Shown here: positions 15,703 to 22,526 of the stretch, in pieces
Position numbering within the stretch: the stretch's first letter is position 1
Layout of the letters: each line of letters starts with the position of its first letter
Assembly: GCA_964632315.1 (NCBI GenBank)
Contig: CAZWEM010000034.1
Location: 1-51,009 of the forward strand
DNA from: an uncultured archaeon
Lineage (GTDB): Archaea > Asgardarchaeota > Lokiarchaeia > Sigyniarchaeales > SOKP01
DNA length: 51,009 nt
Direction: 5' to 3'
The notes under the pieces: generated by a model
The model's input: only the letters and a program-made list of their open reading frames with translations
Told to the model about the DNA's origin: nothing
Database searches by the model: none
Program-made: the position numbers and the translations under genes

Positions 15703-17988
15703 ATGATGCTAAAAGTGAAATTTAATAAAGGTGTTTTGGTTTTATGGAGAAATTTTAACCTAGTCTTAATTCTAATTTCTTATGTTTCACTTTTCGTTAT
15801 TTTCCTTCAGATTATTGGATTAAACAATTTACTCCAAGCAAATGGTTTAATATTACTTAAACATATTTTTAATAGTTTTGATCTAATGTGTACTGCGTTT
15901 GTACTTTTGTTTTTACCCTCCTACCCAATTTTCTTTTTCCTTGTCAGATATGATGGATTTAAACTCATGGAGAAGATCAGTTTAACAATCATCACAAATC
16001 TTTCTTTTTACATTATTTCAGGAATTATTGCGCAAGATCTAAACGCTCCACTGGTGTCTACATATTTTTTCACATTTACTTTTTATCTTTATTCGGGATT
16101 AATGGTGATTTCTTTCTTTTTGGGTTCAAGATTTCTCCAAGTGAATGGGATGCACACTAAAATGAGAGAAATAAATCAAGAGCAGTTTATTTCAACTTTT
16201 TCGATTAAAAGATTATTCAAAAAATACTTCTCTCTTAATCAATTACTTTTGATTCTATTCATATTCCTTTTTATATTGTTGGATTTTGCTCGTGGAGGAT
16301 TTTTCGTGGGGACGGACCCATGGGTTCATTTAAGCATAATTAAAAGTGCGAGTATAACCCATCAACTTCCGATGGATGAATATTATGGAGCCATGGGGCT
16401 GCATGTATTTAGTTTGATCTTTTACTACTTTACTGGGACGGATCTGCTCTTAATTCCTCGCGTTTATCTTTTTTATTCCTTTCCAGTTTCAGGACTAATC
16501 TCATATTGTCTTTTTAAAAGAATCTTTAAAAATAAAAATCTCGCCGTCCTCGGGGTCTTCATACTCACTTTTAGTTCCTTAGGTTTCACCTACATGATGT
16601 ATCAATATTGGCCTTCAGGACTCGCACTACTCCAGATGCTCATGGTATTCTTAATTCTATACATTAGGCAACCCATTTTTATTGGTGAAAAGCCACCTAC
16701 TAAGAAAACAATCCGGGAGCATCTTATCGAACATTATGTTCCAATAATTTTGATTTTCACCAGTTCATTGATCACGCATTCACTTATTACAATGATTATC
16801 TTAATATCGTATTTATGGATTTATTTAGTATTTTTTGTGGTCAACTTTAGGCGAGGATTCGATCTCTTCCTCCTATTAGGATTGGTTGGGATCTTTTTAG
16901 GTTTTCTCCTTTCTGGAATGAATACTGGGCACTTTAGGGTATTTAACTATATTTTTGAAGTATATCCCATTTTTATTATCATTTTAGGATTAGTAGGAGG
17001 CGCTGCACTCTTATTACTCCCCTTGTGGTTTTTTAAAAAGCACACATCGTTTTCTAAAGGTAAGTATGGTTTGATTGTTTCAGGGAAGAAGCGTGATATT
17101 TTTACTCGGATCTCAGATAAACATCTTTTTCTTGGAGTGGCTATTTTAGGTATAATTTTCACAATAAGTTATTTTATTATAAATTTAATTGTCTTAAATG
17201 CTGATCTAAGTTTCGTGCTTGTAGGTTTTGAACTCATCCTTATAATACTATTTTCGTTATTTGGGATTGGAATTTTTCAATATAAACCGAGAGGTAAGTC
17301 TTTGTGGTTGTGGTTTTTAGCATTATTGTTCTTGGTCCTTGCAGGTATCTTGTTTAATAGTCTAACAGAAACGCTGAATTTCTTTACACGTATTTTTTAC
17401 ATATCCTCAGTTGCCATAGTAATTGGATTCGTTTCATATATCTATAAACTAATTCGTAATGGAGTAATTCGTGAGTGGAAGGCGAAAGTTTTTATTGGAT
17501 TTATTGTCTCATATTCCCTTGTCGCCGCATTTATAGATCTTAATAATTCTGTAGAATTTTTTAGCTTGAAGAACTATGAAGTAGATGCTATTGAATGGTA
17601 TTCAAATTATACATCTAATAAGAACGTGATTATTGCGGAATACGGATGGGAACATGTGTTTGTATATTATGATTATCCTTTTGAAAGCAATACTGTTTCT
17701 TTCAAAGGGATTTTCGTTTACATCTATGCTGATAATCAATACATGATTCCAAGCAAACATATTCTTCCAAATGGGACTAATATTTTAAGACAGTTAAAAA
17801 AACAGAATCCTGGTTCCAACGTGTACTTATTTTTATCGGATTATTATCTCTTACCATCAGGTTCAAGTTTATTTGGGAGATTAACCAACGAACAAGTAGC
17901 AGCTTACTATAACCTGACTTATTTAAATAAAGTTTTTTCTGCTAAACTTGAAACGGGAGTAGAGTTGCCCATTTACTGGGTCATTTGA
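15703..17988 (+). CDS. Polytopic membrane protein, putative GT-C glycosyltransferase
   Basis: Many TM segments, GTDPWVH loop motif, C-terminal extracellular domain; overlaps the convergent downstream gene by 8 nt. Confidence 0.6.
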   Translation: MMLKVKFNKGVLVLWRNFNLVLILISYVSLFVIFLQIIGLNNLLQANGLILLKHIFNSFDLMCTAFVLLFLPSYPIFFFLVRYDGFKLMEKISLTIITNLSFYIISGIIAQDLNAPLVSTYFFTFTFYLYSGLMVISFFLGSRFLQVNGMHTKMREINQEQFISTFSIKRLFKKYFSLNQLLLILFIFLFILLDFARGGFFVGTDPWVHLSIIKSASITHQLPMDEYYGAMGLHVFSLIFYYFTGTDLLLIPRVYLFYSFPVSGLISYCLFKRIFKNKNLAVLGVFILTFSSLGFTYMMYQYWPSGLALLQMLMVFLILYIRQPIFIGEKPPTKKTIREHLIEHYVPIILIFTSSLITHSLITMIILISYLWIYLVFFVVNFRRGFDLFLLLGLVGIFLGFLLSGMNTGHFRVFNYIFEVYPIFIIILGLVGGAALLLLPLWFFKKHTSFSKGKYGLIVSGKKRDIFTRISDKHLFLGVAILGIIFTISYFIINLIVLNADLSFVLVGFELILIILFSLFGIGIFQYKPRGKSLWLWFLALLFLVLAGILFNSLTETLNFFTRIFYISSVAIVIGFVSYIYKLIRNGVIREWKAKVFIGFIVSYSLVAAFIDLNNSVEFFSLKNYEVDAIEWYSNYTSNKNVIIAEYGWEHVFVYYDYPFESNTVSFKGIFVYIYADNQYMIPSKHILPNGTNILRQLKKQNPGSNVYLFLSDYYLLPSGSSLFGRLTNEQVAAYYNLTYLNKVFSAKLETGVELPIYWVI

Positions 17989-18766
17989 GCATTTCATAAT
18001 CCTCTGGGAACGCAGTTTCAAACTTATCTTTTAGAAGTTTCGCTTTATCTCCTTCAATCTTGAAGATTTGAGGTAATTTCCCAGCATATCCTACGTTATT
18101 ACCCCTACAGATTAAGGCGCCTCTTATACTTGGAAAATCATCTACCGCATCCAAAGCAGTTTTAATAGATTTCTCTATGTCATCACCCTTTACTAAATTT
18201 GCAATCATAGTTGCCGCCGCATCAGCATTAGTAGCATTATCACAAAAAATTGTTGCGGCATCAGCTCTCCCAAGGCTAACGGCATGTCCAACAGTTGCAG
18301 AACTTGTCGCAATCCCCAAAGGACAGTCGTTATTGGTTATTAAAAATCCGATATTTAGATTCAATCGATTTTCACCAGCATACAATGCAATCTTCATGTC
18401 AGTTTCAGAATCGATGGCAATTTCTCCACCATTTTCAACCAAGGCAGTTTTAGCGGGAATAAACTCAGGTTTTTTAGATTTCATGTCTAATAACATTAGA
18501 TCTGCTAATGCTCCAGCAACAGCAGCCATTGGACCAACCTTGTACAATTCGGACGCTTTATTCATGATCTGAATAATAGGTTCAGAACTATAGATTTCCA
18601 CGGGTTCAAAAGATCGTTCGAATAACGGATATTTGCTGACATAATTTTCTAAAATGGTTCTATCACGATAAAAACCTTGCTTAGCACGGTTAATAGCCAC
18701 TTTTGAGTCTGAGATAATGGTAATATCCGATTCTTTTTCAGTAAAGTGGTGTTTGAAGACTTTCAA
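17981..18766 (-). CDS. UPF0280 / ApbE-like family protein
   Basis: VGPMAAVAGA, VENGGEI, GIATSSATVGHAVSLG.ADAA, ADAAAT..AN motifs. Confidence 0.9.
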   Translation of the reverse strand: MKVFKHHFTEKESDITIISDSKVAINRAKQGFYRDRTILENYVSKYPLFERSFEPVEIYSSEPIIQIMNKASELYKVGPMAAVAGALADLMLLDMKSKKPEFIPAKTALVENGGEIAIDSETDMKIALYAGENRLNLNIGFLITNNDCPLGIATSSATVGHAVSLGRADAATIFCDNATNADAAATMIANLVKGDDIEKSIKTALDAVDDFPSIRGALICRGNNVGYAGKLPQIFKIEGDKAKLLKDKFETAFPEDYEMLK

Positions 18767-18870
18767 TTCAAAGAAGTATTATTTTTAAATTTGTAGGTTA
18801 ATTTAAGCAATCATAAAAATATAAATAAATTTAATACTATTAACTATTCAAGACTTTCGGCTGTTGAATC

Positions 18871-19362
18871 ATGAAAAAGGGTAATTATGACCAAATCATC
18901 TCTGAACTGAAAAAGGAATTAGATTCAGAATGCGCTATTGCTAGTAAGTATGGAATTGTTTTAGCGACAAAGATTAAGGAATTTTCGAAAGCGAAAATAA
19001 TTCCTCAAAAAATACTATCTGTAATTAAAAATTCTCAAGACATTGCAAAAGAACTTGGGTTGAAGCAAATTAACTCCTTTGCTTTAGAGGCAGAGAAGTA
19101 TAATTATCTATTTACATTTAGCTCAGAATTAATCTTAATCTCCAAGTTGAAGTTAGACGTGAATTTAAGCAAGTTCATGCCAAACGTGAGTGCATTTTTG
19201 AATCAATTAAGTGAGAATTTAAAGGAAGATGAGATAAAGGAATTTTCAGAGTTTGATTTTAAAAAGGAGATTCAAAATATTGAAGAGAGTATTAAAAAAG
19301 ATGAGTCGAAAGAGAAGAAATATTCGATTATAAAGGATCTTGTAAGTTTCATTTCAAACTAA
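18871..19362 (+). CDS. Roadblock/LC7-like domain protein with acidic/helical C-terminal extension
   Basis: Helix, then CAIASKYGIVLAT hairpin, helix ending ELGL, beta-strands, and VNL..F final helix: the roadblock/MglB pattern. Confidence 0.65.
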   Translation: MKKGNYDQIISELKKELDSECAIASKYGIVLATKIKEFSKAKIIPQKILSVIKNSQDIAKELGLKQINSFALEAEKYNYLFTFSSELILISKLKLDVNLSKFMPNVSAFLNQLSENLKEDEIKEFSEFDFKKEIQNIEESIKKDESKEKKYSIIKDLVSFISN

Positions 19363-19386
19363 ATTAACTATAAAAGGTAGATTATA

Positions 19387-21609
19387 ATTTTACGGCAAGT
19401 TTATATTTTAAAAGATGGAAATCTCATCTATTATCGCCACTTTGGCAAAGCATTGAAAAAGGAAATGTTTGATTCGATAATTGATGATTTATTGGTAGAT
19501 GCTTTTGGAAAAAGTGGGAATAAAATTGACTATCATGATTATTATAAATATAGAATATCCTTTACCACTCAAGATGAGTTAAATCTAATCTTTATTTTTG
19601 TCACAGGGTTAACAGACAACTTTGATAATATTAAAAAAGAGTTATTTAAATGTAAGAAAGAATTTCTCAATCTATTTGAAGATATTTTACTCCATAAATA
19701 TGATTCTAAAACGTTTGAAGTATTTGATCCTACGATTGATTCAATACATAGAAACCTACGTCCTAAAATTTCTTTAGTTGGATTTTCTGGGGTAGGTAAA
19801 ACTACAATTACTCGTTTAATCAAAGCTGAAGAAATCCCAATGCAACACATCCCAACAATTACAGGAGACATCGCAACAATTAGAATTGGCAAGCTTTATT
19901 TTCATCTTTGGGATTTTGCAGGACAAGAACAATTTAGTTATTTATGGAACAATTTTATTAAAGGGAGTGACGCAGTTTTATTAATTACTGATTCGTCATT
20001 AGAAAACATTGAAAAAAGCAAATTTTTCTTGGAGCTTATTAAGGAACAAGCAGCACAGGCTCACACTGCGATAATCGCAAACAAACAAGATCTAGCTGAT
20101 GCAATGAAGCCAGAACAAGTTGAAAAAATCCTGGGATTAAAAACTTATTCCATGATCGCAAAAGAATCAAAAAATCGAGATAAAATGATTCAAATTATTG
20201 CTGATATTTTAGAAATGAGTGCAGAAGTTTCACCATTACTTAAACCACTTTTAGAAAGAGACACGTTGATAGAGAAGGCGACAAACAGCTTGGAGAATGC
20301 TGAGTTTGCTGAAGCAGCTGGTTTATTCGAAAAAATTAGTGATCTATGCATAGAATTAGGAGATGATTCTTTAGGTAGAGAATTTTTTCAAAAGGCTCAA
20401 AAAATTAAGGCGATGCTCGAGAAAACCACCAAACCAGTCCAAGTACCATCAGAGCCAGAAAAAGTGCCTCCACCCGTAGAGAAAGTTAAAAAAGCTCCAA
20501 CACCAATGCCTCCTCCAATAAAAACTGATAAGAAACCAATAGTCCAAGATCTCCCTCCTCAAACTACTAAAAAGCCAGAAGTGCCTTCAAGTCCTCCTTC
20601 TATTCCCAAGGAGCCCGTGAAAACGATTTCTACGGATAATGTAAAAAAACCTACACTTCCAAGCACTCCTGAACCATCGTTCCAGTCACCTCCTCCACCA
20701 CCGCCCCCTTCTTTAAAAAAACCAGAACTTGCATCTGTTCCTGCTACAAATAAGGAGTTAAAGGCACCTCAAGCATCTCCTCCAAAAGTCTTCTCAACTC
20801 TTGAGAGAACTTTAGATGGGTCAACTATGAAGGAAGGTGAAAAAGAGAAACTAACTTCTCCAATTAGTCAAGGAAAATCAATAAAAACCCCAGAGACCCC
20901 AAAATCTCCAGAGGATGAAAATTTAATTGATGCGAATATTAATTTGGAGCATGCTGGCCTAAAACTAAACCCAGATGACTTCATTGTTAAGCAAAGGCCT
21001 AAAACAGTAACAAATGTTCCCAAAGATGCTAAGAATAAATTAAAGACCTCCCCATACGATCTTGTCTCCAATAAACCGAACGGTCCTCCACCTTCTCCTC
21101 AACCAGTTGCTCCATTTAAGTTAATAGAAAAGGAACAAGCTGAAGTTCCAAAGACGCCTCTTATTCCACAAAATGAGCAAAATTCTGAAAAAACAGCACC
21201 ACCCCCTATCATTAAGCATCCAAAAGTAACTACAGTTCCGATTCAAAAGCACCCTGTCCCCCCACAAAGCCCAGGAACTCTACCAACACCCCCTCAACCG
21301 ATCAAACCCGCATCTGTTCCAGCAACTCCCTCTCAAGTTGAGGAACAAGAGATCAGTGCCGTTAAAGAGCAATCACCAGGTAAAGCGTCTCAAGAAATGA
21401 GTCAACAACAAAAATCGGAGTTAGAAAAGTCTCTAATGGATCTTAAAATAAAGAAAGCAAATTTATCGAAGATCGCTTTAGATTATGACATGAAGGAGTT
21501 AACTGGAGAAATTACGAGTGATGAGTTAAATGAAAAAAAGCAGAAGTTAGAAAAGATCGTAGAAAGCGTGAATAAGCAAATTGAGGATCTTGAGGGAATG
21601 TTAAAATAA
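19387..21609 (+). CDS. Multidomain small GTPase: longin-like, Arf-like GTPase, helical bundle, Pro-rich linker, C-terminal coiled coil
   Basis: G1 GFSGVGKT, G2 PT, G3 WDFAGQ, G4 NKQD. The frame is open upstream of TTG 19453 to ATT 19387, giving (M)LRQVYILKDGNLIYYRHF, a longin-type N-terminal beta-hairpin. Confidence 0.85.
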   Translation: MLRQVYILKDGNLIYYRHFGKALKKEMFDSIIDDLLVDAFGKSGNKIDYHDYYKYRISFTTQDELNLIFIFVTGLTDNFDNIKKELFKCKKEFLNLFEDILLHKYDSKTFEVFDPTIDSIHRNLRPKISLVGFSGVGKTTITRLIKAEEIPMQHIPTITGDIATIRIGKLYFHLWDFAGQEQFSYLWNNFIKGSDAVLLITDSSLENIEKSKFFLELIKEQAAQAHTAIIANKQDLADAMKPEQVEKILGLKTYSMIAKESKNRDKMIQIIADILEMSAEVSPLLKPLLERDTLIEKATNSLENAEFAEAAGLFEKISDLCIELGDDSLGREFFQKAQKIKAMLEKTTKPVQVPSEPEKVPPPVEKVKKAPTPMPPPIKTDKKPIVQDLPPQTTKKPEVPSSPPSIPKEPVKTISTDNVKKPTLPSTPEPSFQSPPPPPPPSLKKPELASVPATNKELKAPQASPPKVFSTLERTLDGSTMKEGEKEKLTSPISQGKSIKTPETPKSPEDENLIDANINLEHAGLKLNPDDFIVKQRPKTVTNVPKDAKNKLKTSPYDLVSNKPNGPPPSPQPVAPFKLIEKEQAEVPKTPLIPQNEQNSEKTAPPPIIKHPKVTTVPIQKHPVPPQSPGTLPTPPQPIKPASVPATPSQVEEQEISAVKEQSPGKASQEMSQQQKSELEKSLMDLKIKKANLSKIALDYDMKELTGEITSDELNEKKQKLEKIVESVNKQIEDLEGMLK

Positions 21610-21746
21610 GACTAACATAAATCTATTTCCTAAGACTTTTTATTTATTTTTCTTACTTACAAAAGAGATATAATCCAATTCTTCATTAATATACTCAATG
21701 TAGTGTATTTTCATTATAAACTTTTTAAAGATTAATCGAAAATCTC

Positions 21747-22526
21747 ATGGATGATAGGGAAGTAGGGAAATATTGGGAATCAAATGCAGAGAATTGGACT
21801 AAATTGGCAAGATTGGGGTATGATCGTTGCCGAAATTTGATTAATACCCCTGCTTTTTTCAAAATGTTACCAAATATTAAAGGATTAAAAGGATTAGATA
21901 TCGGTTGTGGCGAAGGATATAACACAAGGATTGCGGCAAAGAAAGGGGGACACTTAACTGCGATTGACATCTCCGAATCTTTCATTAATTATGCAATAGA
22001 AGCCGAGAAAACGGATCCTTTAGGAATAAAATATCAGATCGCAAGTGCAGTAGATCTTCCATTTCCAGAAAATCATTTCGATTTTATAATGGCTACAATG
22101 AGCATGATGGACATAGCAGATAATGAAAAAGCTTTCAAAGAAGCATTTAGAGTGCTTAAACCCGGTGGATTTTTTCAATTTTCTATCAGCCATCCAGTCG
22201 CATCAGCTAAATGGGAATGGGTGAGAGATAAAAACGGAAGAAAAACAGGCCTTATACTGAGAGACTACTTTAATAGAATTGAGGGTGAACTCGACGAGTG
22301 GATCTTTGGTGCAGCACCAAAAAAGATTACAGAAAATATGGAAAAATTTAAGATACCACGATTTCATCATACTGTCTCTGATTGGTTGAACATGTTGATA
22401 AAAGCGGGTTTTACCTTAGAAGAACTTTGCGAACCCCATGTGGAGGAAGAGGAATTAAAGAAACATCCTGAAGAGTATGATTCTTTAATAGCCCCTTTAA
22501 TCTTGATAATTCGATGTAAAAAATAG
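21747..22526 (+). CDS. Class I SAM-dependent methyltransferase
   Basis: LDIGCGEG, AIDIS, LPF....FD, RVLKPGG.F.FSISHP. Confidence 0.92.
   Translation: MDDREVGKYWESNAENWTKLARLGYDRCRNLINTPAFFKMLPNIKGLKGLDIGCGEGYNTRIAAKKGGHLTAIDISESFINYAIEAEKTDPLGIKYQIASAVDLPFPENHFDFIMATMSMMDIADNEKAFKEAFRVLKPGGFFQFSISHPVASAKWEWVRDKNGRKTGLILRDYFNRIEGELDEWIFGAAPKKITENMEKFKIPRFHHTVSDWLNMLIKAGFTLEELCEPHVEEEELKKHPEEYDSLIAPLILIIRCKK

Follow-up and report, generated by a model that had tools for sequence, protein, structure and literature searches.

In a 51,009-nt stretch of DNA from an uncultured archaeon (contig C34 of a 4.45-Mb genome with 32% G+C; referred to below as the window), two co-oriented genes at positions 18871–21609 of the forward strand encode a 163-residue roadblock-fold protein (gene 1) and a 740-residue protein (gene 2), in which a longin domain, an Arf-type GTPase domain (G domain) and a long tail are joined in one chain. 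As read from gene order, this pair is a two-gene operon that is near-universal and essentially single-copy in one order of Loki-type Asgard archaea, whose public relatives carry the label Promethearchaeota. On the basis of this gene context, we lean slightly towards the view that the roadblock protein is a dedicated platform or regulator of the neighbouring GTPase, as MglB is for MglA.

Conservation of the roadblock–GTPase gene pair

At all 31 loci compared from four families, a roadblock gene was found immediately upstream of the GTPase gene on the same strand. In a survey of the best 80 public loci from a collection covering 185,579 species, the two genes were adjacent and co-oriented in 78, with gaps of 12–55 nt; one of the two non-conforming loci is cut by a contig edge, and the other holds the second of two tandemly duplicated copies. 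With 365 relatives of the GTPase retrieved from public records, natural pairs should number several hundred. The coordinates of the pair also fit in some 60 additional genomes from the order, whose sampled members include closed single-contig genomes (G044, G050 and G055). Since both open reading frames (ORFs) and their order are kept in more than 100 genomes, chance can be ruled out. Moreover, the adjacency has been kept despite divergence of the roadblock protein to 25–33% identity between families, the corresponding values being 41–50% for the longin domain and about 70% for the G domain. The original prediction, made from the letters of the window, had named neighbourhood conservation across Asgard genomes as a check, with lack of synteny and lack of a roadblock fold among the grounds for refutation; the synteny in four families and in the public loci, and the modelled fold of gene 1 (below), speak against refutation on these two grounds.

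The association is also specific. A profile of the roadblock protein matched 64 of the family's 68 genomes and, in the sister family, 5 of 7; its sole match among about 225 genomes sampled elsewhere in the phylum was weak and partial (E 1.9e-6). Clustering at 50% identity left 45 representatives of the roadblock family among 1.84 billion proteins, and no gene 1 paralogue was found in the window's own genome. Thus, the family, which is small and order-restricted, exists only alongside this GTPase. Its most distant relative, P0161, lies on a contig that stops at the gene. No roadblock gene was found upstream of the tail-less paralogues of the GTPase (about 350 residues, in related genomes) or upstream of the distant longin-GTPase paralogues in the window's own genome, indicating that the link is specific to the tailed orthologue.

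The two gene products and the start codon of gene 2

The features of the locus, all on the forward strand, are as follows.

18820–18827, +: putative TATA-like box (TATAAATA), 44–51 nt before the gene 1 ATG, read from sequence
18871–19362, +: gene 1, roadblock-fold protein, 163 residues (ORF)
19376–19380, +: Shine-Dalgarno-like GGTAG (GGTGA in most relatives), the last three bases being the in-frame TAG at 19378–19380
19387–19389, +: ATT start codon of gene 2, the homologous codon across families f1–f4
19387–21609, +: gene 2, longin-Arf-like GTPase with tail, 740 residues, stop codon at 21607–21609
19387–19755, +: longin domain, residues 1–123 (secondary structure of the AlphaFold2 (AF2) model, VIA-align)
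19756–20229, +: Arf-type G domain, residues 124–281 (Pfam Arf, PDB profile, VIA-align, motifs)
19780–19806, 19909–19926 and 20080–20091, +: motifs G1, G3 (WDFAGQ) and G4 (NKQD), respectively
20230–20433, +: conserved SPLLKPLL motif and TPR/MIT-like helical unit, residues 282–349 (model helices, alignment A5)
20434–21402, +: proline-rich linker, residues 350–672 (composition, alignment A3)
21403–21606, +: C-terminal helical module, residues 673–740 (alignments A3 and A4)
21636–21654, +: T-rich run 3' of the gene 2 stop codon, a candidate archaeal terminator from sequence reading

The roadblock likeness that had been noticed for gene 1 is supported by its modelled fold. The AF2 model, built with a 19-sequence alignment (A1) and having a predicted local distance difference test score (pLDDT) of 77, shows the order α-β-β-α-β-β-β-α followed by C-terminal helices, with helices at residues 6–17, 46–61 and 99–116 and strands at 20–25, 29–33, 69–73, 78–83 and 87–93. 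Foldseek searches against the PDB gave Roadblock3 of strain MK-D1 (9jue) as the top match (E 6e-6, TM score 0.75 by target length), with MglB, a Thorarchaeota roadblock protein and LAMTOR2 among the further matches, and with a probability of 1.00 for 9jue, 1j3w, 6h5b, 7f8m and 5y3a. The roadblock (RB) core extends over about residues 6–116 and is followed by a conserved C-terminal helical extension (about 117–163) ending in KKYSIIKDLV..IS (alignment A1). Gene 1 matched no Pfam family at E ≤ 1, including Robl_LC7 (PF03259), and no NCBIfam model; its assignment to the Roadblock/LC7/MglB superfamily is made by modelled fold only. Some sources name its relatives 'Roadblock/LC7/MglB family' or 'Roadblock/LAMTOR2 domain', and the positional counterpart in a sister family matches Robl_LC7 at E 0.0068, under the cut-off. 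Comparison of the A1 profile by hhalign with the roadblock-like ORF upstream of a sister-family orthologue (L051:1954-2487) was not significant, the terminal helix alone being aligned (E 0.11).

The AF2 model of gene 2 spans residues 1–330 (pLDDT 73). Residues 1–123 follow the order β-β-α-β-β-β-α-α, and VIA-align matched residues 1–126 to the longin domains of VAMP7 (4afi, Z 14.1), synbindin (2zmv, Z 13.7), Sec22 (3egd, Z 13.6) and SRX (5ck3, Z 11.8) and also to sedlin, in agreement with the longin-like N-terminus noted originally. No Pfam longin-type model matched this region; SRP-alpha_N appeared at E 2 only. The G domain gave 81.3 bits with Pfam Arf (PF00025; cut-off 22.3) and, beneath this stronger match, 26.9 bits with Gtr1_RagA (cut-off 22). 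Arl1, Arf1 and Arl8 led the PDB profile search (E about 4e-17), and VIA-align returned Arf1 (Z 14.3), together with Sec4, Arf6, Arl13B and Asgard ArfR, one of the GTPase groups (ArfR, which takes in eukaryotic Arf, Arl, Sar1 and SRbeta, and the prokaryotic ArfL and Rag) defined in bioRxiv 10.1101/2024.02.28.582541; MglA was a lower match (Z 12.0). The GFSGVGKTT, IPTITGD, WDFAGQ and NKQD motifs are invariant in 19 aligned orthologues from four families (alignment A2). Because all G motifs are thus invariant, with the P-loop, the switch-I Thr and the catalytic Gln of DFAGQ among the residues kept, the domain probably works as an active switch. The assignment to the Arf type made earlier holds, with the correction that the motif given as PT.G is PTITG. 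No N-terminal amphipathic helix of the Arf type is present: the 123-residue longin domain joins the first strand of the G domain directly, through a linker of only about 4 residues.

Downstream of the G domain, a three-helix bundle had been proposed. Two of its helices (residues 285–303 and 307–324) are modelled, the model ending at residue 330, and the third would follow as judged from sequence. Matches of this unit to TPR designs, Vps4B-MIT and calpain-7-MIT are weak (E 0.005–3). The linker, predicted originally at about 300 residues, comprises 323 residues, of which 22% are Pro, with 25 PxxP motifs and a single run of seven Pro, and it is poorly conserved save for a genus-level motif (LNPDDF.VKQRPKTVT.VPKDAKNKLKTSP); it contains neither a tandem DNA repeat nor a hydrophobic or transmembrane segment. 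In the region 20001–22000, G+C rises up to 0.377 and GC skew is negative across the linker, owing to CCN codons rather than foreign DNA.

At the C-terminus, ~65 residues with the pattern DLKIK...LD.DM..(L/I)TGE(I/L)(T/S).(D/E)E...K show conservation between families. Since an invariant Gly lies in the middle of this module, a hairpin is likelier than one continuous coil, so that the terminal coiled coil predicted originally is retained as a conserved helical module of different probable shape. When 13 C-terminal modules were scanned singly with Pfam, sub-threshold matches were obtained for GvpG (8/13), a CdvA-like coiled coil (7/13) and SHOCT (3/13); the window's own module matched SHOCT only, also sub-threshold (E 0.075). 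In our reading, these residues form a helical hairpin that follows the SHOCT/GvpG/CdvA pattern, with candidate membership only, and that probably serves in oligomerisation or docking. The function of modules of the SHOCT, GvpG and CdvA types is itself poorly known. A protein atlas search with residues 280–352 and 668–740 gave no usable match. In other Asgard classes, a small separate gene that encodes a Pro/Ala-rich stretch and a coiled coil follows a tail-less longin-GTPase (L055:3595-3930, L056:1221-1562 and L057:3734-4348), and one such coil ends in G.I..EE(Y/F)..K, as does the window's module. The module matched these small genes marginally (BLASTP E 0.093 in one comparison and no match in the other; profile E 0.0036 for one, in a tiny database), and the window's tail may derive from fusion of such a neighbour gene.

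Gene 2 starts 24 nt after the end of gene 1 with ATT at 19387, so that the spacing and the length of roughly 740 residues given in the original prediction are both confirmed. The reading frame is open from 19381, just 3' of the in-frame TAG, and all orthologues align from the codon preceding a conserved LRQV, which is this ATT in the window. The codon is ATT, ATA or ATC in all nine sampled genera of family f1 and ATG or GTG in the three sister families f2–f4; over 78 public loci, ATT occurs in 49, ATA in 18, ATC in 4, ATG in 6 and ACG in 1. In the nine genera, GGTGA or GGTGG sits 6 nt before the start codon, and because the TGA of GGTGA is usually in frame, no start is possible further upstream; in one relative (L025), TAA immediately precedes the ATT. 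Furthermore, the first 22 codons vary synonymously with the peptide conserved. As read from these alignments, the ATT, ATA or ATC placed 6 nt after GGTGA is a family-wide non-AUG start, seen in the window (19376–19389) and at loci L014–L044, L066–L085 and L091–L170. The start given in the ORF list, TTG at 19453 (19453–21609, 718 residues), was rejected, as it would delete the first two conserved strands of the longin domain. An assembly error at the ATT was also rejected, contigs of four independent salt-marsh runs being identical across the stretch.

The TATA-like box lies within a divergent intergenic region of 104 nt upstream of gene 1. On its other side, the divergent gene (17981–18766, reverse strand) matches NCBIfam PRK04334-type 'hypothetical protein' models with 222 bits, under the equivalog cut-off. 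Its position beside the roadblock gene is kept genus-wide and at two sister-family loci, and it is missing at the sister-family loci L033 and L036–L040; it has no evident link to the pair.

Candidate roles of the roadblock protein

Four considerations argue for the roadblock protein as the platform or regulator of this GTPase, namely, the exclusive and persistent pairing of the genes, the established tendency of roadblock and longin dimers to bind small GTPases at the switch face, the existence of fused relatives that join longin, G domain and roadblock-like segment in one chain, and the parallel with MglB encoded upstream of MglA. In such a mechanism, the roadblock protein would dimerise, either with itself or alongside the longin domain in cis, to form a flat platform, which would bind the G domain at its switch face and modulate GTP hydrolysis, nucleotide exchange or both, as MglA is controlled by dimeric MglB and the C-terminal helix of that protein. 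The tail would keep the switch distant from the binding or oligomerisation partner of the terminal hairpin, and the weak AUU, AUA or AUC start codon would give a low GTPase-to-roadblock ratio, probably holding the GTPase sub-stoichiometric to the roadblock protein. We infer all of these steps, including the binding itself, the direction of regulation as GTPase-activating protein (GAP) or guanine nucleotide exchange factor (GEF), the role of the tail and the effect of the start codon.

Several points weigh against this reading. The contact between the two proteins is proposed from the genes alone, and the operon status from their order. The G domain is Arf-like, not MglA-like, and no roadblock protein is known to us as the GAP or GEF of an Arf-type GTPase. 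The longin domain in cis could, by analogy with SRX on SRbeta, fill the face that would otherwise bind the platform. The AF2 models of the two proteins are of moderate quality, with the switch region poorly modelled. In one genome (G180), moreover, the roadblock gene has no adjacent GTPase gene and is followed by other genes instead, the tailed GTPase being encoded on another contig behind a surface-protein/adaptor gene.

The adaptor is a recurrent protein of about 380 residues with a longin-like N-terminus and weak winged-helix matches, starting with MP.G..V..WD....G.....KYP and matching no Pfam family above threshold (copies at L051:4307-5437, L055:1510-2712, L056:2429-3517, L057:1616-2773, L058:4001-5134, L059:3943-5052 and L090:3553-4650). 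It is encoded downstream of a roadblock-like gene and GTPase in one sister family of the class and directly upstream of GTPase relatives in three other families of the phylum; by family, it adjoins GTPase relatives in f12, f13, f24 and f5 and, in f1, both tailed and tail-less copies. The copy in the window's own genome is on contig C2, behind a large surface protein (G000:C2:78597-79700; L063:1438-2610), and the window itself contains none. In some genomes, the adaptor follows, or is fused to, a large surface protein anchored by a transmembrane segment. In view of this recurrent neighbour of GTPase relatives, the description of the pair as self-contained in the original prediction was overstated.

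The adaptor also bears on whether the roadblock protein might be a scaffold only, self-paired or paired with the longin domain in cis into a Ragulator-like platform for anchoring or assembly that leaves the nucleotide cycle unaffected, the GAP or GEF being elsewhere, for example, in the adaptor. We regard this as unlikely, though as the least so of the alternatives. It would account for the LAMTOR roadblock dimers among the structural matches of gene 1, for the adaptor-like gene beside GTPase relatives in five families, and for the 120-residue domain resembling the adaptor N-terminus that lies within about 2 kb of the pair at 6 of 8 sister-family loci. An anchoring platform fits poorly, however, with the lack of a membrane anchor, transmembrane segment or lipidation signal in either protein and with the absence of the adaptor from the surroundings of the pair in the window, and MglB, the best-studied prokaryotic roadblock partner, acts on the nucleotide cycle.

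A lower probability is given to the longin domain in cis as the real partner of the G domain, through an intramolecular contact of the SRX–SRbeta or longin-GAP type, with the roadblock protein merely co-expressed and having another target. The very short linker between the two domains is suggestive of such a contact, as are the matches to both SRX (Z 11.8, 18% identity) and SRbeta (Z 12.1, 21% identity), and the tail-less paralogues retain the longin domain without a roadblock gene. Co-expression for another target is nevertheless hard to reconcile with a roadblock family not found apart from this GTPase, and the more than 50 other small GTPases of the genome (at least 50 small-GTPase matches in all) have no such fixed neighbour.

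A more elaborate version of the platform, which we hold to be quite improbable, is a mixed heterodimer in which the roadblock protein pairs with the longin domain in cis. Such a platform, of a type hitherto undescribed, would gate the Arf-like switch; the spacer and the CdvA/SHOCT-like hairpin would link the GTP state to profilin-actin or ESCRT-III, and the adaptor would link the unit to the tails of giant surface proteins. If this were true, the unit would be an archaeal forerunner of GTPase-controlled membrane–cytoskeleton coupling. Lastly, adjacency without joint function, a promoter being shared for historical reasons only, is very improbable: the pairing is known from genes alone and the tight spacing could reflect genome compaction, yet 78 of 80 loci share the order, the strand and the spacing of 12–55 nt, which persist between families even as the neighbouring genes vary.

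Relation to known systems and significance

The adjoining of roadblock genes and GTPase genes is an old prokaryotic theme. The closest parallel to the role that we favour for the roadblock protein, that of dedicated platform or regulator, is mglBA of Myxococcus and Thermus, where a gene for a roadblock-fold protein likewise lies directly upstream of a small GTPase gene. MglB ranks with the top structural matches to gene 1, and both proteins have a helix beyond the RB core, conserved in gene 1 and functional in MglB, whose dimer is a GAP for MglA and whose C-terminal helix promotes exchange (PMC6785124). In contrast to mglBA, the GTPase here is Arf-like and has a longin domain fused to it and a tail of 460 residues, gene 1 has no Pfam Robl_LC7 match, and the system is known from its genes alone.

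Fusions of longin domains with Arf-like GTPases in Lokiarchaeum were already counted in 2016 (Klinger 2016, as summarised in PMC4917890), longin-Rag-like fusions were pointed out in 2020 (Liu, bioRxiv 10.1101/2020.10.19.343400), architectures of MK-D1 with longin and/or roadblock domains were modelled in 2024 (Tran, PMC10933270), and Asgard Arfs with longin N-termini were mentioned in 2025 (PMC11914678). Of the GTPases of strain MK-D1, 26 are fused to an RB or longin domain, and longin-GTPase-roadblock chains are reported for this strain (PMC10933270). According to Tran et al. (PMC10933270), GTPase genes as a rule do not share an operon with genes for either domain. The window orthologue shares with these fusions the longin-plus-GTPase architecture of the 'Rag-like but annotated Arf' class; it differs from them in lying in a roadblock operon order-wide and in the added helical unit, proline-rich spacer and terminal hairpin. 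Hence the original statement that the architecture was uncharacterised held only in part: longin-Arf/Rag-like fusions are in print and the mglBA layout is known, whereas in the searchable papers we found no description of this orthologous pair as a fixed operon, of its helical unit, spacer and hairpin tail, or of a family-wide non-AUG start.

Several variant GTPases were noted in the genomes compared. A 508-residue paralogue in the window's own genome (L005:931-2457, G000:C38) starts with MLRQIHVF and has the P-loop GPTNSGKTS and WDFELKD in place of WDFAGQ; with the catalytic Gln thus missing, this paralogue is a probable pseudo-GTPase and has a helical unit and tail of its own. In G180, a 683-residue chain (L089:257-2308, G180:C53) is encoded convergently to the orphaned copy of the roadblock gene. 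In this chain, a longin domain, a degenerate G domain (RDFADDEK for WDFAGQEQ) and a helical unit are combined with a segment weakly resembling roadblock/LAMTOR3 and with a GTPase of Ras/Rab type (Ras 1.8e-44). In related genomes, tail-less paralogues are preceded by a Gtr1/RagA-type GTPase of about 310 residues (Pfam 4.2e-24) at L060:4097-5014 and L062:2306-3253, and in G248 a tail-less paralogue occurs in tandem copies.

Other systems resemble the pair in part. Rag–Ragulator similarly combines a roadblock platform with a small GTPase, and the Gtr1_RagA match of gene 2 (26.9 bits) and the LAMTOR2 match of gene 1 recall it; the Arf model scores far higher (81 bits), the roadblock domain is here encoded as a protein of its own, the G domain leads into a helical unit and a disordered tail where Rag/Gtr proteins have a C-terminal roadblock domain, and no LAMTOR1-like anchor is present. 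With SRX–SRbeta, both components of which are among the structural matches, the pair shares the combination of a longin fold with an Arf-family G domain, but these are here in one chain, longin then GTPase, without the transmembrane anchor and the NG domain of the receptor for the signal recognition particle. The C-terminal module carries the L..G.I(S/T)..E(F/Y)..K...L pattern of SHOCT, GvpG and CdvA and its relatives match these families sub-threshold, but no match of the module reaches a curated threshold.

Regulators of Asgard small GTPases are rarely readable from gene order (PMC10933270), and the present pair is an exception, with one fixed roadblock gene and one fixed GTPase gene across an order. 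In addition, the family-wide AUU, AUA or AUC start is a clean natural case of archaeal non-AUG initiation. Collectively, the parts are of known kinds, and the pair is an experimental entry point rather than a surprise, being a candidate for the first biochemical test of an archaeal roadblock protein regulating an Arf-like GTPase and of the contribution of a longin domain in cis.

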